A stretch of DNA of 64,000 nucleotides from assembly GCF_947496775.1 (NCBI RefSeq), contig NZ_CANMDU010000004.1:218426-282425 (forward strand), given 5' to 3'. This DNA comes from an uncultured Maribacter sp. GTDB lineage: Bacteria; Bacteroidota; Bacteroidia; Flavobacteriales; Flavobacteriaceae. This document shows positions 22,157 to 60,443 of the stretch, one piece after another (the stretch's first letter is position 1; every line of letters starts with the position of its first letter). A program made the translations under genes and the position numbers. The notes under the pieces are model-generated. The model made no database searches and was not told where the DNA came from. It saw nothing but the letters and a program-made list of their open reading frames with translations.

Positions 22157-23173
22157 CTAACTTTTGCTATACAGACTTATAGCTTTTTCCAATTTCTTAG
22201 CAATTCGCTTGCGAAGTCTTTCAGGTTGAATTACTTCAATAGCATCACCAAAACCCAAAATCAAACGTTCCAATTCAAAGTTGATTTTCACTTTGATATT
22301 TACTTCAACACTTCCATCTTCATTTTCTTTTTCAATAATCTGTGAATGATGTAAAGGTTTAGTGACGACATAAGGAGCATTGTATTTGTCAATCCATAAT
22401 TTAATATTAGAAGCCCGTTCCCCTTGGTTAACGGTCACACCTACTATGTCTTTATAAAAGCTGTCTGCATCAAATTCATAGTTGGAATATGGAGTTGTGA
22501 AATCATAGTCAATGGAAATGATTCGGTCAAGGGCCAGATTTACTATGCCCATGTTCTTATTTCCCATCCCAATCAGAAACCATCTGTTGTTAAATTCCTT
22601 CAATAAACAGGGGTGAAAAGTAATTACATTAGCCGTAGCAGCTTTAAAAGATTTATACTCTAATTTCAAAACCACCTTTTTCTGAATAGCTTGATAGAGT
22701 TCGTCAAGCCAATGGAGTCCTTTGAGATTCTCGTTTTTATCTAAATGAATAATGGAGGATTGATGCGTCTTCTCCGTATATACTTTATCTTCTAACCGTT
22801 GAATAATTCCACCCAGTTCTGAAAACAAAGAAAAATCTTTAAACTGCTTTAGCATTTCCACCGTTTCGGAAAGCACATTCATGTCGTTCTCGGTTATCGG
22901 GATATCTGTAATGGAATAATCCTCATCTTCGTATTTGTAATACTTTCTATCATAAGCAACAATTGGAGCATTGTAACCTAGTTTATCACCGCGCATCAAC
23001 TGAATATCGAGTTGCACGGTACGTTTACTTACGTTCACTTCCCTACCCTCGTATTCGTGTAGGGCATCTGAACAGGCCTCTATCAAATCATTCAGAGTCC
23101 ATTGCCGATAGTTATTTTGAAGGCATTTGTCAATAGTTTTGTATCGGATTAGAGCGTTTTTGTTTAGGGCCAT
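22157..23173 (-). CDS. HTH + WYL-domain transcriptional regulator (WCX-like C-terminus)
   Basis: A 338-aa product with an N-terminal DeoR-like HTH (KRTVQLDIQLMR). A central WYL-type domain carries the WFL signature (NRWFLIGM). The architecture matches WYL regulators associated with defence and repair loci. Confidence 0.75.
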   Translation of the reverse strand: MALNKNALIRYKTIDKCLQNNYRQWTLNDLIEACSDALHEYEGREVNVSKRTVQLDIQLMRGDKLGYNAPIVAYDRKYYKYEDEDYSITDIPITENDMNVLSETVEMLKQFKDFSLFSELGGIIQRLEDKVYTEKTHQSSIIHLDKNENLKGLHWLDELYQAIQKKVVLKLEYKSFKAATANVITFHPCLLKEFNNRWFLIGMGNKNMGIVNLALDRIISIDYDFTTPYSNYEFDADSFYKDIVGVTVNQGERASNIKLWIDKYNAPYVVTKPLHHSQIIEKENEDGSVEVNIKVKINFELERLILGFGDAIEVIQPERLRKRIAKKLEKAISLYSKS

Positions 23174-23290
23174 TTAGGAGTATTTTTAATGAAAATACTA
23201 AATCAACCTATACTACGCAAAATAATTGCGCACATGAATCGCAAGTTTGTACCGGAATCATAAAGAAGCCGGTTCACCGACTTCATGTAG

Positions 23291-23320
23291 CGCTCTGCCG
23301 AACGCTTGGAATCGGCAGAG
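23291..23320. promoter_or_regulatory. Perfect 10-bp GC-rich inverted repeat (GCTCTGCCGA-N10-TCGGCAGAGC) in the WYL/rtcB1 divergent intergenic region
   Basis: Read directly from the sequence. It is GC-rich in an AT-rich intergenic region with no T-run, so it is a candidate operator or UTR structure. Confidence 0.4.
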
Positions 23321-23398
23321 CTAATTAAAAGGAATTATGAAATGAGCCAAAACGGATTGGCTAATATTATCCGATTTCCAAAGGCGAATTGCATCTGA

Positions 23399-24811
<1,413 letters not shown>

Positions 24812-24836
24812 AAATTAATTTAGACAAAATAATACT

Positions 24837-26219
24837 ATGGAAAATTCACAAAATACAAGGCATACAATCTTTGAAGAAGAAGCTTTCCAAAGATTATTAA
24901 AAGAAATAGAACAGAATAATGGAACAGCTATGTTGATAGGTGGAGCCGTTATTGATAACATCAATGGATTAGAAGTAAAAGATATAGATATTGAAGTTTA
25001 TGGTCTTTCCTATGTACAACTTGTTGAGTTGATAGAAGGTTTAGATATGAATTGTAATCTGGTAGGTAAATCTTTTGGAGTTATAAAAACAGTCATTGCT
25101 AATTTCGAAATCGATATGTCAATCCCTAGAAGAGAAAATAAAGTAGGGATAGGTCACAAAGGATTTACCGTTGAATTAGATGCGAAAATGACGCCAAAAG
25201 AAGCAGGTAAAAGAAGAGACCTCACTATTAATAGCATGTATCTAAACTTACATACTGGAGAATTGGTGGATCCATATAATGGGTTGGCAGATTTAGAAAA
25301 AGGAATACTTAGAGCCACGAATGAACATACTTTTATAGAAGACCCTTTACGAGTTTTACGTATTATGCAGCTTTTACCTAGAAAAGGTAAATTAGTAGCA
25401 AAAGAAACGCTAGAGATTTGTAAAAAAATGGTTGAATTTTTTTCTGAATTACAAGCGGAACGCATTTTTGTAGAGTGGGAAAAGTTATTACTAAAAGCTG
25501 AAAGACCTTCTATTGGATTAGAGTTCTTAAAAGCTTCGGGTTGGTTAAAACATTTTCCTGAATTACAAAATTTAGTAGGATGTCCACAAAATCCTATTTG
25601 GCATCCTGAAGGAGATGTTTGGGTGCATACTTGTATGGTTATAGACAATGCGGCTAAACTAAGAGATTTGGTGCCTGAGGATTGGCGGTTAACTTATATG
25701 TTTGGTGCATTGCTACATGACATTGGAAAACCATCAACCACCACACCAGAACTAACGGCTAATGGGCATGATGTTGCAGGAATTCCTTTAGCTGAAACAT
25801 TTATGAAAAGAATTACTAATAATAAGTCACTTATAGAAAGAGTGAGTACAATTGTTGGGTTACACATGAGAGCAGGGCAATTATTTAATTCTAAGGCCAA
25901 AGAGTCTGCTTGGAAACGTCTGCATAATAAATGTAGGTTAGATATTTTAGGATGGCAAAGCAAAGCTGATTCAGCGGGAAGAACTGGTAGAAATGTTATG
26001 TTAGATAAGCATGGAGCATCTGAAAAGTGTTTTGAGCTATTTAAAGAATTTGGTAAAAAAGAGATTCAACGTGTTATTCTGGGTAGAGATTTAATTGCTT
26101 TAGGTCTAAAACCATCCGAAAAATTCGGAGTGATTTTAGACGATTGTTATAAAAAACAACTTGATGGTGCTAGTCGAGAAGAAATTCTACTTAACCTAAA
26201 AAATGCTTCTTTAAAATAA
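24837..26219 (+). CDS. CCA-adding enzyme-like class II nucleotidyltransferase with C-terminal HD phosphohydrolase domain
   Basis: The head-domain motif is GGAVIDNINGLEVKDIDIEV, with RRDLTINSMY and an HD motif (LLHDIGKP). It lies 25 bp downstream of rtcB1, suggesting an operon. Confidence 0.75.
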   Translation: MENSQNTRHTIFEEEAFQRLLKEIEQNNGTAMLIGGAVIDNINGLEVKDIDIEVYGLSYVQLVELIEGLDMNCNLVGKSFGVIKTVIANFEIDMSIPRRENKVGIGHKGFTVELDAKMTPKEAGKRRDLTINSMYLNLHTGELVDPYNGLADLEKGILRATNEHTFIEDPLRVLRIMQLLPRKGKLVAKETLEICKKMVEFFSELQAERIFVEWEKLLLKAERPSIGLEFLKASGWLKHFPELQNLVGCPQNPIWHPEGDVWVHTCMVIDNAAKLRDLVPEDWRLTYMFGALLHDIGKPSTTTPELTANGHDVAGIPLAETFMKRITNNKSLIERVSTIVGLHMRAGQLFNSKAKESAWKRLHNKCRLDILGWQSKADSAGRTGRNVMLDKHGASEKCFELFKEFGKKEIQRVILGRDLIALGLKPSEKFGVILDDCYKKQLDGASREEILLNLKNASLK

Positions 26220-26317
26220 TTTTTGCACCTTTGCAGTAGTTCATTGAAATAGTTCTTTTGAAATCTTTTGGGAGATATGTAAGCCAAGAGTTGGTTTGCA
26301 TAACTTTTAAAATTTAA

Positions 26318-26608
26318 ATGATGAATTGGAAAATTCAAAAATTGCAAGATGGTGAGACTATCATTTCAAAAGAACCTGGTAATTCTATGTTACCTATACT
26401 AAAATCTAAACAACCTGTTAGGCTTGCGCCAATAAGTTGGGAAAATTGTAAGGTAGGTGATATTGTATTCTGTAAAGTACGTGGAAATGTATTTACGCAC
26501 CTTGTAAAAGGAAAAAGTGACAAACGCGGTTTACTCATTGGTAATAATAGCGGTAGAATTAACGGATGGACCAAAAATGTGTATGGTAAAGTAATAGAAA
26601 TATTATAG
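26318..26608 (+). CDS. Standalone S24 (LexA/UmuD-like) serine peptidase domain protein
   Basis: A 96-aa product with GNSMLP (G-x-SM catalytic Ser motif) and a downstream GDIVF...NVFTHLVKGK (Lys dyad region). The pattern parallels the LexA C-terminal domain. Confidence 0.5.
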   Translation: MMNWKIQKLQDGETIISKEPGNSMLPILKSKQPVRLAPISWENCKVGDIVFCKVRGNVFTHLVKGKSDKRGLLIGNNSGRINGWTKNVYGKVIEIL

Positions 26609-26758
26609 GCATCATACCACATTTTATTCTTTAAATTTTAAAAGTAAATCATAAAAACAAAGTACATGCTAAATCATTTTAATCACATACCGGACGCTAA
26701 AAAGCTAAAATTGCATCGAATTGATGGGTAGATACTATTGAAAACAGATACATAACTA

Positions 26759-26787
26759 GAGCGTCCAAGATATTGGGCGCTTTTTTT
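26759..26787 (+). terminator. Intrinsic terminator AGCGTCCAA-GATAT-TTGGGCGCT-T7 (element A)
   Basis: A 9-bp stem with one G.U pair precedes a T7 run. An upstream GGACGCT (26692-26698) can alternatively pair with the 5' stem arm. Confidence 0.7.
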
Positions 26788-27139
26788 ATGTAAATTTTTT
26801 AGAGAATTCTCAAAATTCTAAAAGAATGCCATTTGAAAGCTAAGCATTTGAAAAACAGCAAATTGATGAATAATGCTGCTATCTGTTAACTAACGGACAG
26901 GCTATCTTATGTCTAAATTTAACCGCAAACAATTGATTGTCAGTAATTTATATTTAATTTTATTTGTGTAATTCAAATATCCGTTTTAGATTTGCACCAG
27001 AATTAAACAATAACATTTTTAACTGAAGTATATATGACAATTTCAATCACATATCAAAAAACACTACAAGCACCAGGTGCAATTGTAGTGTCGCTTCAGG
27101 ACTTCATACACGCATAGCGCTACTCGCAATATGATAGAA

Positions 27140-27171
27140 AGTCCGAAGCTCCAAAGTTTCGGACTTTTTTT
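27140..27171 (+). terminator. Intrinsic terminator AGTCCGAA-N10-TTCGGACT-T7 about 100 bp upstream of rtcB2
   Basis: A perfect 8-bp stem is followed by T7. Confidence 0.75.
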
Positions 27172-27228
27172 ATGCCCTTCTTTTTCGAGGCACAACTTTC
27201 CGAATTAACATATCAAATCTAGTATGGT

Positions 27229-27270: not shown

Positions 27271-28662
27271 ATGGGAAAGAAATTAAGCGGAAAAGACCTA
27301 ATTAAATTGGGATTTCCAAAGAACAATAGTATCAACATTACATTAGGTCAAATCAATCGGTATCACAAACGAGTAAAGAAAGAACAGATACTGAGAGAAG
27401 CCAAAAAAGTATTGTTACATCCTGAAAACTATAAAGGTGATGGGGTTTGGGGTAAGATTGCTGAAAGTTTGGTAGATCCTGTAATAGTGAAAAAGCATGC
27501 ACTCAAAGCGGTACGCGCACCATTTCATATTTATGGTGAAAATGAAATTGAAGAACAAGCCAAGTATCAATTGTATGATGCCTTAAAACTTCCAGTTTCT
27601 GTTGCCGGCGCATTGATGCCAGATGCACATTCTGGTTATGGTTTACCCATTGGTGGTGTTTTGGCAACGAAGAATTCGGTGATTCCTTATGGAGTAGGCG
27701 TTGATATCGGTTGTAGAATGTGTTTGACTATTTATCCTATTCCAGTCTCTTATCTGAAAGGAAAGAAACATCAATTGTCGAACATCCTTTCTGAGCATAC
27801 CAAATTCGGAATGCGAGAAACGCATCAAATAAAACATGACCATGAAATCTTTGAAAGAGATGAATTTAACGACATCCCTTTGGTAAAAAGATTGAAAGAC
27901 AAAGCCTATAAGCAATTAGGAACCTCAGGTGGAGGAAATCATTTTGTCGAGTTCGGAAGTGTTTCTATAATGGATGCAAAAAACGAATGGGGATTAAAAT
28001 CTGGAGAATATCTAGGCATATTATCTCACAGCGGTTCACGAGGGTTGGGTGCAAATATTGCAAAGCACTATACCTATTTGGCAACTAAGCAATGTCCGTT
28101 ACCAAAGCAAGTACAACACTTGGCTTGGTTAGATTTAAATACGCACGACGGGCAAGAATATTGGTTAGCTATGAATTTAGCTGGCGATTATGCAACCGCA
28201 TGTCATGATAATATTCACAAGCGTCTGGCCAAATTAATTGGAGAAAAAGCGGTGGCAAAAATTGACAATCATCACAATTTCGCTTGGAAAGAAGAGGTAA
28301 ACGGCGAAGAATGCATTGTGCACAGAAAAGGAGCTACACCAGCAGGGAAAGGAGTATTGGGGATTATACCTGGCTCAATGACCGCTCCTGGTTACATCGT
28401 AAAAGGTTTGGGTAACAAGGAGAGTTTACACTCTGCTTCCCACGGTGCAGGACGTCTTTTTTCAAGACGAAAGTGTAAAGAAACGTTTACTCGCAGCGAG
28501 ATTAAAAAGCAATTAGACGCAAATGAGGTAAGCCTTATAGGTGGAGGAATTGATGAAGCACCAATGGCCTACAAAAACATTGAAAAGGTCATGGCAAATC
28601 AACAAGAATTGGTTGAAGTACTCGGAACCTTTACACCCAAAATAGTGCGAATGGATAAATAA
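27271..28662 (+). CDS. rtcB: RtcB-family RNA ligase (paralog 2, PrfH-associated 'RtcB2' type)
   Basis: RtcB motifs are present: MPDAHSGYG, DIGCRMC, GGGNHF, HSGSRG, HHNFAW and SHGAGR. It lies immediately upstream of a prfH-like gene. Confidence 0.85.
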   Translation: MGKKLSGKDLIKLGFPKNNSINITLGQINRYHKRVKKEQILREAKKVLLHPENYKGDGVWGKIAESLVDPVIVKKHALKAVRAPFHIYGENEIEEQAKYQLYDALKLPVSVAGALMPDAHSGYGLPIGGVLATKNSVIPYGVGVDIGCRMCLTIYPIPVSYLKGKKHQLSNILSEHTKFGMRETHQIKHDHEIFERDEFNDIPLVKRLKDKAYKQLGTSGGGNHFVEFGSVSIMDAKNEWGLKSGEYLGILSHSGSRGLGANIAKHYTYLATKQCPLPKQVQHLAWLDLNTHDGQEYWLAMNLAGDYATACHDNIHKRLAKLIGEKAVAKIDNHHNFAWKEEVNGEECIVHRKGATPAGKGVLGIIPGSMTAPGYIVKGLGNKESLHSASHGAGRLFSRRKCKETFTRSEIKKQLDANEVSLIGGGIDEAPMAYKNIEKVMANQQELVEVLGTFTPKIVRMDK

Positions 28663-28757
28663 CAGATAGTAGTTAGCGACGGTATTCATAAAGCATATTG
28701 AAAACCTAAGATTATTGGAATACTAATGCTGGCTACTTTTTTTTAAAGAAAGAAAAA

Positions 28758-29450
28758 ATGGAAAAAATAATACAAATAACAGCAGGAAGAGGCCCAGCAG
28801 AATGTAGCTGGGTTGTTTCCCAAGTGCTTAGGAAATTCTTGCAAGAAGCCAAGACTGAAGGGTTTCAGTATGTCATCTTGCAAAGAGAAAAAGGCAATCA
28901 AAATGGAACGATACAATCAGTCAGCATCCGCTTGAAAGGGGCAACCCTAGAAGTTTTTTTAGCTACTTGGTTAGGAACAATTCAATGGATTGGCAACTCA
29001 ACTTTTCGAAAATACCACAAACGTAAAAACTGGTTTATCGGAGCTTTCGAATTGAAATTGCCACAGCATTCTGAAATATGTGACAGAGATATCTCTTTTC
29101 AAACGATGAGAAGTGCAGGTCCTGGTGGTCAGAATGTAAATAAGGTAAACTCAGCCGTACGGGCAATTCATACCCCCACAGGAGTACAAGTAGTTGCCAT
29201 GGATAGTCGTTCGCAACATCAAAACAAAAAACTTGCGATAGCCCGATTAAAAGAAAAAGCAAACGAGGCTAACATAGAAAAGCTTAAAGAAAGGATGACG
29301 GACCAATGGGAAAATCATCTGAATATAGAACGCGGAAATCCGGTCCGGATTTTTAAAGGAACCGATTTCAAACACCAAAAAGAAAATAAAAGCTTTAAAC
29401 CAAAACGGCAAAAGCTAAAAAACGATTTAAAACAACAAAAATGGGACTAA
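28758..29450 (+). CDS. prfH: PrfH-like peptide chain release factor homologue (GGQ peptidyl-tRNA hydrolase domain, lacks RF domain 1)
   Basis: A 230-aa product with a GPAECS N-terminal signature like PrfH GPEEC. The GGQ motif sits in RSAGPGGQNVNKV. Pairing with rtcB is the hallmark of rtcB2-prfH modules. Confidence 0.8.
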   Translation: MEKIIQITAGRGPAECSWVVSQVLRKFLQEAKTEGFQYVILQREKGNQNGTIQSVSIRLKGATLEVFLATWLGTIQWIGNSTFRKYHKRKNWFIGAFELKLPQHSEICDRDISFQTMRSAGPGGQNVNKVNSAVRAIHTPTGVQVVAMDSRSQHQNKKLAIARLKEKANEANIEKLKERMTDQWENHLNIERGNPVRIFKGTDFKHQKENKSFKPKRQKLKNDLKQQKWD

Positions 29451-29986
29451 CAATAGCCGATACCTATTATTTAAAAGCAAAGGCGGCATCTGGTTATGAT
29501 TGGGACGAAGTTTGTGAATCACTGAACTACGCCCTGTCCTACGATGAAAATCATTGTGCCTCCCTTTGTCTTTTAGGTAAAGTTTATGCTCGAAATTTGA
29601 ATCAGTATTCGGAAGCATTCGATTGCTTTGATAGGGTGATAGCAATTGATACTTATAATATAGATGTATACCCATTATATGCTAAGTATTTAATCTGGGC
29701 GGATGAAAATGAAAAGGCGTTTCGATTAATTGAATTTGCTCTTTCTATAAAAGGTATAGATAAAGCTCAGCTGTACTGTATTTCGGCCTATGCATTAGAA
29801 ACAAATGGAAATTATAAGGTTGCGCTGCAACATTTAAAAGAAGCAAAAAGACTTACCTATAACAATGACTATATGTTTTATATAGTTGATGAAGAAAATA
29901 GAATTAAAAAGAAATTGAAATTGGATAAATCTAAAGCACAAAAGAAGAAATTATCAACTAAAAAAAGGAAGAAAAAGAACAAATAG
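29441..29986 (+). CDS. TPR-repeat protein with lysine-rich C-terminal tail, translationally coupled to prfH
   Basis: A 181-aa product with TPR-like helical repeats. The C-terminal tail KKKLKLDKSKAQKKKLSTKKRKKKNK is basic. The ATG overlaps the prfH stop (ATGGGACTAA). Confidence 0.6.
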   Translation: MGLTIADTYYLKAKAASGYDWDEVCESLNYALSYDENHCASLCLLGKVYARNLNQYSEAFDCFDRVIAIDTYNIDVYPLYAKYLIWADENEKAFRLIEFALSIKGIDKAQLYCISAYALETNGNYKVALQHLKEAKRLTYNNDYMFYIVDEENRIKKKLKLDKSKAQKKKLSTKKRKKKNK

Positions 29987-30171
29987 TAGTAACAAAACGT
30001 TTAAAAATAACATCTTTGTAAACAAATGACACCGAGAGAGTTACATATCATCCAACAAATAGAGCTTTGGCTCTTCTATTTTCGCTCAGAATATAGTGAG
30101 CGAAACGGACGCTATGTGACTTTATCCAACAGTTGATTCTATGAAATAACTCGATTAAGCGATAAAATGAA

Positions 30172-30202
30172 AGCGTCCAATTACAATTGGGCGCTTTTTT
30201 TG
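30172..30202 (+). terminator. Intrinsic terminator AGCGTCCAA-TTACAA-TTGGGCGCT-T7 (element B, homologous to element A)
   Basis: It has the same 9-bp stem, including the same G.U position, as 26759-26787. GGACGCT lies upstream at 30107-30113. Confidence 0.7.
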
Positions 30203-30377
30203 TGGAATAATTTTAAACAATTGAATGAGAAGTAAAAAAATACAAAACTAGATAGTTGAATTACGAAACAATTGATATACAGGCGATTGTAGCACATATT
30301 CGAAATGCTTTTCTGCATTCATGAGCAACGATTTATAAAATAAAGAATAGGCGAACTAATCCTGTCTGTTCCACCAT

Positions 30378-30450
30378 AAGAGTATAGTTCAATTGGATAG
30401 AACGCTGGGCTACGAACCCAGAAATGCGAGTTCGAGTCTTGCTACTTCTG
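30378..30450 (+). tRNA. tRNA-Arg(ACG), hand-folded; A2.C71 mismatch and G.U in T-stem
   Basis: The D-arm is TAGTTCAATTGGATAGAAC, the anticodon stem CTGGG/CCCAG has loop CTACGAA, and the T-loop is GTTCGAGTC. A hairpin AACTACGCA/TGCGTAGTT lies downstream at 30471-30495. Confidence 0.55.
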
Positions 30451-30525
30451 CTAAAAACAAAAGAAATCTGAACTACGCATAATAATTGCGTAGTTATGTT
30501 TCAGTTTTGTGAAGTAATTGGAAAA

Positions 30526-30730: not shown

Positions 30731-30905
30731 CAAAGTTCTTTGAAAAGAAATTTCTGCTTAGGCAGGATTAACAATATCAAGCTGGTCTTGTTGGGTGTTT
30801 CTGTAGGGCACTATTGTATGAAGTTTTACTGAGAAGTATAATGTCTTCATGTATAACTTGACTTGATGGTTTCGATTGTTTACCAAAAAACAATCTCCGC
30901 GCTGT

Positions 30906-30935
30906 GGGTCATGGGTTCGAATCCCATCGGTTCTG
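30906..30935 (+). other. tRNA 3'-part fragment (variable loop + T-arm ATGGG-TTCGAAT-CCCAT + acceptor 3' strand CGGTTCT-G) lacking a cognate 5' half upstream
   Basis: It has a canonical T-arm, but no D-arm or anticodon arm lies within 90 nt upstream. Confidence 0.5.
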
Positions 30936-30938
30936 AAA

Positions 30939-31004
30939 AGAACCGTAGTTCAGAGGTTAGAACAACAGACGTAGGTGTCATGGGTTCGATTCCCATCAGG
31001 CTTG
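30939..31004 (+). pseudogene. Degenerate/mosaic tRNA: 5' acceptor AGAACCG + D-arm, truncated anticodon region, T-arm, non-matching 3' acceptor CAGGCTT
   Basis: It is 66 nt long. Its 5' acceptor complements the 3' acceptor of the preceding fragment, not its own. Only 16 nt lie between the D-arm and the T-arm. Confidence 0.45.
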
Positions 31005-31005
31005 A

Positions 31006-31048
31006 AAACCTGTAGCTCAGTTGGTAGAGCACTACACTTTTAATGTAG
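31006..31048 (+). pseudogene. tRNA-Lys(UUU) 5' portion (acceptor AAACCTG, D-arm TAGCTCAGTTGGTAGAGC, anticodon stem-loop CTACA-CTTTTAA-TGTAG) without canonical T-arm/3' acceptor
   Basis: The downstream sequence gives the hairpin ATGGA-CTGAAAA-TCCAT but no matching acceptor strand. Its 5' acceptor nearly complements the 3' acceptor of the preceding element. Confidence 0.45.
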
Positions 31049-31450
31049 GTTATGGACTGAAAATCCATTTTCAACAAGAAGGTCACTTGTAAAAAGACCA
31101 CCGGATGGTCACTCCGTATAATTGACAAAAACAGTAGTTGTACATCGGTCATTATTTCCTAAAGAGGAGTAAAGACAATCATGAAGCTACTTTGAAATGG
31201 TGATTTTTTTGATGTGAAAGGCAAATCCTTTTTTAGTCATCCTTCCTTCTGGAAAACTGATAACAATTTTATTAGTAAGACAATCGGATGCATGCTATAA
31301 AACGAATTGTAACGAGTATCAAAAACCAGTATTTCCGTATCAGAAAGATGATATGCCCCTGCTGTTTTTTTAAATAGAACAAATAGTAATACATGATAAT
31401 AGTTTAACCCGTTCGTCCGTCACTAGACTGGCGGACACAAATTTTAAGTA

Positions 31451-60038: not shown

Positions 60039-60443
60039 ATGAACAAAACGCAACTCGTTTCTGAACTAACATTCAAAGCAATACGAAGTAGTGGTGCCGG
60101 CGGACAGCATGTAAATAAAGTTTCTTCTAAAGTAGAATTGAGTTTTAATGTTACCGATTCTAAAGCGTTAAGAAATATTGAAAGAGAACGTATTCTGCGT
60201 TTCCTAGCCAATAGATTAAATAAAGAAAATATTCTTATTTTACAGTGTGATGAAAGTAGAAGTCAACATAAAAATAAAGAACTAGTTGTAAAACGTTTTT
60301 TTCTTCTTCTCGAAAATGCCTTAAAAGTTCCTAAAGTAAGGCGTAAAACAAAACCAAAGAAGTCTGCTATTGAGAAACGCTTAAAATCTAAAAAAAGAGC
60401 AGCTTTAAAAAAAATGAATAGAAGAAAACCAAATTTAGATTAA
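60039..60443 (+). CDS. arfB: Alternative ribosome-rescue factor ArfB (peptidyl-tRNA hydrolase, GGQ + basic C-tail)
   Basis: A 134-aa product with SGAGGQHVNKV and a Lys/Arg-rich C-terminus. Confidence 0.85.
   Translation: MNKTQLVSELTFKAIRSSGAGGQHVNKVSSKVELSFNVTDSKALRNIERERILRFLANRLNKENILILQCDESRSQHKNKELVVKRFFLLLENALKVPKVRRKTKPKKSAIEKRLKSKKRAALKKMNRRKPNLD

Follow-up and report, generated by a model that had tools for sequence, protein, structure and literature searches.

A conserved TPR gene with a lysine-rich tail is the third member of the flavobacterial rtcB-prfH operon, which probably stands behind a leader-peptide attenuator

What does a third gene do in a ribosome repair module that consists of two genes in Escherichia coli? 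The question is raised by a stretch of 64,000 nt from an uncultured Maribacter sp. (contig NZ_CANMDU010000004.1, positions 218,426 to 282,425), here called the window, in which rtcB and prfH are followed by a gene for a 181-aa tetratricopeptide repeat (TPR) protein with a lysine-rich tail. To our knowledge, RtcB2-PrfH is the only pathway that reverses colicin-E3-type ribosome damage. In E. coli, PrfH rescues ribosomes cut at A1493 of the 16S rRNA and RtcB religates the rRNA (PMC9304027, PMC9223846, PMC13166195); the module there has two genes and an untailed PrfH, whereas the window operon has three genes and a tailed PrfH. A preliminary description of the window had taken two genes as canonical and the third as an extension. 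The first part holds for E. coli, but accessory genes, a TPR gene among them, were listed for this system by Burroughs and Aravind in 2019 (Int J Mol Sci 20:1981; PMC6514570), and the extension as such is not novel. The three-gene arrangement is already published in kind, and the leader attenuator and the lone TPR genes described below are the most informative additions.

Eighty prfH loci (cited by L numbers where needed) were fetched from GTDB species representatives, 61 of them of the Bacteroidota type and 59 of these evaluable. The preliminary description had named beforehand the absence of the TPR open reading frame (ORF) downstream of prfH in relatives as grounds for rejection; 42 of the 59 loci carry a homologue directly 3' of prfH and in the same orientation. 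The two genes overlap in 24 loci, are separated by 2-43 nt in 15 and by a larger gap in 3. In the window, the stop codon of prfH and the start codon of the third ORF both lie within ATGGGACTAA, as first described, and this 10-nt overlap has the identical size in L001, L002, L011 and L060; in loci of Chryseobacterium and Flavobacterium the genes overlap by 14 and 17 nt. The carriers belong to the Flavobacteriaceae (Zobellia, Aquimarina, Polaribacter, Tenacibaculum, Dokdonia, Flavobacterium) and the Weeksellaceae (Chryseobacterium, Bergeyella, Soonwooa, Cloacibacterium); beyond the Flavobacteriales, the gene is present in a Carboxylicivirga locus (Marinilabiliales, L039) and in one of the Chitinophagaceae (L041), and three metagenome loci also carry it next to prfH-rtcB.

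The reading frame is likewise maintained under strong purifying selection, with Nei-Gojobori dN/dS values (nonsynonymous to synonymous substitution rates) of 0.02-0.15 among unsaturated pairs, far from the value near 1 that had been named beforehand as the second ground for rejection. The database search returned 126 homologues, and a profile search over 1.84 billion representatives recovered 162 clusters (50% identity, E<=1e-30), nearly all of them single-domain proteins of 160-200 aa. As the first methionine is invariant in an alignment of 67 family sequences (A1), position 29441 can be taken as the true start codon. Judged by this conservation, the 181-aa ORF is a genuine gene, and by its arrangement it is the co-transcribed third gene of the flavobacterial rtcB-prfH operon, often with predicted translational coupling to prfH. 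Overlaps of stop and start codons are frequent within operons, and by themselves they are no proof of the stoichiometric co-production that had been proposed.

Regarding the two partner genes, rtcB adjoins prfH in 55 of the fetched loci. The RtcB of the window lies well above the gathering score of PF01139 and below the cutoff of the PrfH-partner model TIGR03073 release_rtcB (158.3 bits, cutoff 271.8), being a divergent, longer Bacteroidota form with an N-terminal extension of about 90 aa. PrfH exceeds the cutoff of TIGR03072 release_prfH (232.2 bits, cutoff 166.65), contains the peptidyl-hydrolase motif GGQ within SAGPGGQNVNK, and has its RF-1 domain at residues 106-204, without an N-terminal GTPase-interacting domain. 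The closest genome locus is that of Zobellia uliginosa, whose PrfH is 91% identical. Past the ERGNP region, about 25 basic residues (FKHQKENKSFKPKRQKLKNDLKQQKWD) align with the tails of Capnocytophaga PrfH proteins, and this tail is missing from the 203-208-aa PrfH of Cytophagales and Sphingobacteriales. As described by Tian et al. (2026, Sci Adv; PMC12829566), such proteins form the PrfH-CT subfamily, found mostly in Flavobacteriia, whose basic C-terminal helix enters the empty mRNA channel, thus rescuing both damaged and non-stop ribosomes; the PrfH of Capnocytophaga gingivalis, with which the window protein shares the tail, functions alone in vitro. No defence-system model of PADLOC matched RtcB, PrfH or the TPR protein.

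The operon probably ends at the hairpin with a T-run that follows the TPR gene, a direct repeat (81% identity; nhmmer match 30155-30303) of a hairpin upstream of the leader at 26758-26783, the latter being in the list of the terminator scan and its downstream copy not. As a separate observation, the 95-nt gap between rtcB and prfH (28663-28757) closes with a run of eight T (about 28738-28746), preceded by an imperfect long-range inverted repeat, AGTAGTTAGC ... GCTGGCTACT, and may hold a candidate for a partial internal terminator.

The assignment of the third protein to the TPR fold, made at first from its letters, agrees with structure prediction. Seven single-repeat Pfam TPR models match it, all under their gathering scores, and the profile of the whole family matches the sequences of consensus-TPR structures with E=7.5e-14. 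The AlphaFold model built from the family alignment (pLDDT 90) has nine helices, eight of them forming four TPR pairs and the ninth, a capping helix at residues 142-179, continuing into the tail, which is predicted to be helical although the last 30 or so residues (from about 151) are less confident, with block means of pLDDT 54-72. Compared with CTPR4, MamA and the TPR domain of OGT, Foldseek gave a probability of 1.0 and TM-scores up to 0.72, so that the TPR fold is confirmed at the level of the model. Within the repeats, the family holds an invariant patch, N29-Y30-A31-x-S33-Y34 (LNYALSYD, alignment A1). As no hydrophobic N-terminal signal is present, the protein should be cytoplasmic.

The tail, KKKLKLDKSKAQKKKLSTKKRKKKNK, is as basic as had been stated, 16 of its 26 residues being lysine or arginine, which is the highest count among the 52 predicted proteins of the window (median 4, 95th percentile 8.9). 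The next most basic C-termini are those of ArfB, with 11 such residues, whose presence and basic tail had also been correctly recognized, and of PrfH, with 10. In the 67 members the mean count over the last 26 residues is 14.3. The net charge is +16 for the tail and -9 for the TPR core (family means +14 and -7.2), and no member of the family has a basic core. ArfA, BrfA, ArfT, ArfB and SmpB resemble the TPR protein in being small, cytoplasmic and strongly basic at the C-terminus, in a context of ribosome rescue. However, they have no relation to it in sequence or fold and no counterpart of the TPR domain, and their tails are conserved position by position and are known to bind in the mRNA channel, whereas the tail of the TPR protein is conserved in composition only and is a putative RNA binder.

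When is the operon made? Conservation across genera extends over the 660 nt that separate rtcB from the preceding gene, and their 3' part, at about 26955-27180 in the window, was found by iterated nhmmer in 54 fetched loci, always on the plus strand. A leader of about 170 nt precedes nearly all operons of the Flavobacteriales; it is also present in Capnocytophaga, in Empedobacter and on both contigs with a lone TPR gene, directly 5' of that gene. In the alignment of 38 leaders (A2), the upstream TTTG and the TAnnTTTG block are conserved columns, which we take to be a promoter by the Bacteroidetes sigma-A consensus (TTTG, about 20 nt, TAnnTTTG), the start site being predicted. All 38 leaders contain a short ORF of 24-28 codons, which starts with ATG in 37. 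The N-terminal sequence of its peptide is not conserved. Segment 2 always lies in frame 0 of this ORF, coding mostly for L-R-(D/G)-(F/L), and the stop codon is found 12-27 nt (in most leaders 21 nt) past the point where segment 2 begins; from there to segment 3 the distance is 11-34 nt, mostly 20-25 nt.

Three mutually exclusive pairings are supported by covariation. The terminator helix 3:4 is paired in 92% of the alignment cells, with 39 double-change cells, the antiterminator helix 2:3 in 87%, with 40, and the anti-antiterminator helix 1:2 in 84%, with 18; all three outscore 500 of 500 column shuffles in covariation, as well as all slid controls. Columns 248/249 covary with 304/303, and for columns 303/304 covariation is seen with each of the two alternative partners. 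The RNAalifold consensus contains the terminator helix alone, and a hairpin that individual sequences show within the leader ORF is paired column-wise at only 57%. No Rfam family exists for the leader, the search returning sub-threshold, terminator-driven matches to unrelated leaders and small RNAs, and the literature search found no paper describing a leader-peptide attenuator for an rtcB operon.

By its anatomy, the leader is probably a transcription attenuator of the rtcB-prfH(-TPR) operon that would sense stalled ribosomes. A ribosome that reaches the leader stop would cover segment 2, letting the terminator form, while a ribosome stalled early in the ORF would break helix 1:2, so that segment 2 pairs with segment 3 and the operon is read through. 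Leaders of the trp, erm, cat and ARE-ABCF types share with it the short ORF, the terminator and the overlapping antiterminator and anti-antiterminator helices, and the position of the ribosome decides the fold, as we infer for the present case. The differences from these known attenuators are that the regulated genes form a ribosome rescue and repair operon, and that the peptide is unconserved except for the part encoding segment 2.

From these features, the third protein may be read as an accessory factor induced by translation stress, whose tail would bind ribosomal or other RNA and whose acidic TPR domain would bind a partner, a reading to which we give an even chance in its general form and a lower one for any particular step. 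The Lys/Arg tail would anchor the protein to rRNA on damaged or stalled ribosomes or on the 30S subunit, or possibly to other RNA, and the TPR domain would dock a protein. Together, they would aid the hand-over from peptide release by PrfH to ligation of the 16S rRNA by RtcB, for instance if the protein held the 30S subunit or kept the subunits apart. Standing behind the attenuator, the protein would be made only when needed. A scaffold role was proposed for the TPR gene of the RFH-RtcB pair by Burroughs and Aravind, who likened it to eukaryotic Rqc1 (PMC6514570). In the parts of their article that treat this system, the pair is said to sometimes gain accessory genes, the TPR gene receives one sentence, and the main-text passages describe no lysine-rich TPR tail, no link to PrfH-CT, no lone TPR genes and no leader attenuator; the feature in common is a TPR-domain gene joined to the core pair, and the window family is likely the same as theirs.

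Several points weigh against this role. The searches with Foldseek against the PDB and with the profile against PDB sequences returned generic and designed TPRs, MamA, OGT and subunits of the APC, with no functional lead. In the tail, only R154 and K158, at its base, are kept by position, the rest being of low complexity and variable in length, so that the position-specific conservation of basic and hydrophobic residues known from the tails of ArfA, ArfB, SmpB and PrfH-CT is lacking; moreover, lysine codons are favoured by an AT-rich genome. The gene is absent from the Capnocytophaga loci L026 and L033, where other accessory genes sit between prfH and rtcB, and also from L019 and L043. The TPR gene strongly tracks the PrfH-CT subfamily across the loci compared, but this correlation largely follows lineage and is confounded by phylogeny. 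Two divergent homologues, P0116 and P0119 (33-34% identity), are encoded alone, neither prfH nor rtcB being present in the flanks that were fetched, which shows that partnership with PrfH or RtcB is not obligatory for the protein. Finally, RtcB2-PrfH of E. coli and the PrfH of C. gingivalis need no third protein for their activity in vitro (PMC9304027, PMC12829566, PMC13166195).

The numbers behind the association are 39 loci with both the PrfH tail and the TPR gene, 3 with the tail only (L019 and two Capnocytophaga), 2 with the TPR gene only and 14 with neither (Fisher p=7e-9). In the two TPR-only loci, L037 and L058, the TPR gene is intact although the PrfH tail is lost or truncated. As the exceptions run both ways, neither the tail nor the TPR gene strictly requires the other; the TPR-less Capnocytophaga, the tail-less L037 and L058 and the lone genes thus exclude an obligate adaptor of PrfH. 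The preliminary interpretation is accordingly supported in part: the gene is conserved and constrained and its tail stays basic, but the adaptor that was suggested, if there is one, would not be obligate. An apparent fusion of PrfH and TPR protein (P0149, CAD7229856.1, 330 aa, from an assembly of the ostracod Cyprideis torosa) was considered as Rosetta-stone evidence and set aside, as it comes from a single contig; it is probably a flavobacterial contaminant in which a gene finder made for eukaryotes joined the overlapping genes.

The lone genes themselves remain constrained: the LNYALSYD patch is retained in the two proteins, which share 48% identity, and pN between them is 0.31, whereas pS, at 0.81, is saturated. 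They keep the same leader along with this constraint, which would link the family to translation stress independently of PrfH. A wider reading builds on this point and is put forward tentatively, the chances being rather against it as a whole: a translation-damage regulon of Flavobacteriia, in which a stall-reading attenuator switches on rtcB, prfH-CT and an autonomous ribosome-binding TPR co-factor for rescue and repair, active also without PrfH or RtcB. Such a co-factor could, for instance, bind the 30S subunit, block the re-association of subunits or sense an empty mRNA channel.

Among the alternatives, the association with tailed PrfH speaks first for a chaperone or regulator of the PrfH-CT tail. 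The basic amphipathic helix at the C-terminus of PrfH would lie in the acidic groove of the TPR protein, which would keep PrfH-CT off intact ribosomes or deliver it and so tune its dual activity on damaged and non-stop ribosomes. The co-occurrence of tail and TPR gene, the core that is acidic throughout the family, the adjoining and often overlapping genes, and the known insertion of the PrfH-CT helix into the empty mRNA channel (PMC12829566) are all consistent with this role. We nevertheless consider it unlikely, since the TPR gene has stayed intact in L037 and L058, where PrfH lost its tail, Capnocytophaga and L019 have a tailed PrfH without the gene, lone copies occur with no prfH nearby, the correlation is largely driven by lineage, and the Lys-rich tail of the TPR protein itself would be left unexplained.

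The RNA genes that follow the operon lead to another proposal, namely that the TPR protein acts on free RNA, its poly-lysine helix binding cleaved tRNAs or Y-RNA-like RNAs and presenting them to RtcB or protecting them. In Zobellia uliginosa (L001) and an Aquimarina (L023), arrays of 13 tRNA genes stand just 3' of the TPR gene, including those for Ser, Cys, Tyr, Asp, Pro, Glu, Asn, Leu, Arg, Gln and His, and in Zobellia for Phe too; partial arrays follow it in L002 and L018, and the window has tRNA-Arg(ACG) alone at this position. These arrays may be a spare tRNA set tied to RNA repair. In addition, a lone TPR homologue, again directly behind the leader, is followed by a tRNA-Asp gene in L085 and L086, and the window contains tandem tRNA-like modules downstream, within which a match to the Y-RNA-like tRNA mimic YrlA was obtained (43.4 bits, E=3e-8 in a local scan, under the gathering score of 69), with sub-threshold matches also downstream of the operon in L001, L008, L023 and L087. 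No Ro60/TROVE partner for such an RNA was found in the window by tblastn. The proposal is improbable in our view: the arrays and YrlA-like matches are limited to a subset of marine Flavobacteriaceae, while Flavobacterium, Chryseobacterium and other genera have the TPR gene without either within the fetched loci; loss of rtcB-prfH from an ancestral gene order can account for the synteny; the YrlA matches stay under the Rfam gathering score; and RtcB2 of E. coli does not mend tRNAs (PMC9304027).

That the gene is merely a passenger on the transcript, coding for some small TPR protein of no relation whose Lys-rich end is a by-product of an AT-rich genome, would fit the abundance and functional promiscuity of TPR proteins, the low-complexity, variable tail, the generic search matches and the systems that work without it in E. 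coli and Capnocytophaga, but has little probability given the position and strand kept in 42 loci that span several families and orders and often show the overlap with the prfH stop, the strong purifying selection, the compact dedicated family, the stress-type leader that also fronts lone copies, a tail that is the most basic of the window proteins and basic throughout the family, and the absence of many unrelated gene contexts among the six proteins looked up.

The accessory factor induced by translation stress, which we prefer to these alternatives, is to be placed in a neighbourhood with further genes and repeats. Two other accessory genes, both absent from the window, occur in many related loci, whether or not these have the TPR gene: between rtcB and prfH, a zinc-ribbon protein of about 196 aa with four Cys pairs and a basic C-terminal helix, and upstream of rtcB, a charged protein of about 250 aa (about 230-265 aa) whose N-terminal helix is strongly basic. 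Items 3 and 4 in the list of accessory genes by Burroughs and Aravind seem to be their counterparts; besides the TPR gene, that list names a Pol-beta nucleotidyltransferase and two proteins with a charged helix, one of them a zinc-ribbon (ZnR) protein (PMC6514570). The idea that the TPR gene substitutes for these genes was ruled out, because many loci carry both. In the Aquimarina locus L083, the gap between rtcB and the zinc-ribbon gene contains, on the opposite strand, a match to the Flavo-1 RNA (59 bits, gathering score 42).

Immediately upstream of the operon, the window has a second cluster of RNA repair genes (22157-26608). Moreover, a module composed of a terminator, a spacer of about 200 nt and a promoter is duplicated, one copy lying 5' of the leader and the other 3' of the TPR gene; the module is also present in L001, L023, L083 and L002, and in relatives the second copy precedes the tRNA array, that of the window being truncated. 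Both copies start with a conserved stretch of about 100 nt that resembles a 3' untranslated region, with CGGACGCTA, ending in near-identical hairpins. The features of the window and of the related loci are collected in Table 1.

Table 1. Features of the rtcB-prfH-TPR operon, its leader and its surroundings (window positions, or positions in the fetched locus where an L number is given)
Feature	Position	Strand	Details
rtcB, RNA 3'-phosphate ligase, PrfH partner	27271-28662	+	463 aa; PF01139 284 bits (gathering score 27)
prfH, C-terminally tailed PrfH-CT subfamily	28758-29450	+	230 aa; TIGR03072, GGQ, basic tail
TPR/poly-Lys gene	29441-29986	+	181 aa; four TPR repeats and long capping helix
Overlap of third-ORF ATG and prfH TAA	29441-29450	+	ATGGGACTAA
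Coding region of the 26-residue Lys/Arg tail	29906-29983	+	16/26 Lys/Arg
Terminator-like hairpin and T-run, probable operon end	30171-30201	+	copy of the 26758-26783 hairpin
Presumed promoter, Bacteroidetes type	26963-26994	+	TTTG, about 20 nt, TAGATTTG; conserved columns in A2
Leader segment 1, putative anti-antiterminator arm	27023-27028	+	CTGAAG; pairs with segment 2
Leader ORF	27034-27117	+	27 codons, MTISITYQKTLQAPGAIVVSLQDFIHA and stop; ATG 27034, stop 27115-27117
Leader segment 2, putative antiterminator arm	27093-27104	+	GCTTCAGGACTT; within leader ORF
Leader segments 3 and 4 with T-run, predicted intrinsic terminator	27139-27173	+	98 nt 5' of rtcB ATG
Leader before lone TPR gene	L081 1482-1742		
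Leader before lone TPR gene	L084 5228-5488		
Lone TPR gene	L081 1785-2369		leader directly upstream
Lone TPR gene	L084 5549-6109		leader directly upstream
ArfB	60039-60443		NF006718 123 bits, above cutoff 100
WYL/WCX regulator	22157-23173	-	upstream RNA-repair cluster
Divergent second RtcB	23402-24811		PF01139 130 bits
CCA-adding-type nucleotidyltransferase with HD domain	24837-26219		
96-aa ORF	26318-26608		no family match
Duplicated terminator/spacer/promoter module	26692-26950		5' of leader
Duplicated module, second copy	30155-30303		3' of TPR gene
Duplicated module in related loci	L001 6403-6743; L023 7567-7864; L083 7004-7283; L002 8163-8456		
Zinc-ribbon or charged accessory genes in related loci	L083 4712-5302; L033 4426-5022; L019 2832-3584; L026 4188-4982; L050 5612-6301		
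tRNA arrays	L001 7043-8158; L023 8157-9451		13 genes each
Partial tRNA arrays	L002 8664-8845; L018 10025-10664		
tRNA-Arg(ACG)	30378-30451		at array position
Tandem tRNA-like modules	30865-31068		
YrlA match, sub-threshold	30972-31037		
Flavo-1 RNA match	L083 4609-4699	-	

As seen in the literature search, no functional study of the TPR gene was found, and the word TPR has 0 occurrences in the main text of Tian et al. 2022 in PNAS (PMC9304027), as has the gene in that of Tian et al. 2026 (PMC12829566). In E. coli, RtcB2 alone repairs 30S subunits and 70S ribosomes and PrfH speeds the repair of translating ribosomes (PMC13166195), and the work on that system leaves the need for further subunit-splitting factors unsettled (PMC9304027). 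A conserved third protein in the clade whose PrfH-CT has a dual function is an obvious candidate for a factor of this system, and its family, now annotated as hypothetical or tetratricopeptide repeat protein, could be renamed PrfH/RtcB-associated protein. If confirmed, the leader attenuator would show how cells sense damage to their ribosomes and induce its repair, and it would be a natural reporter of translation damage.

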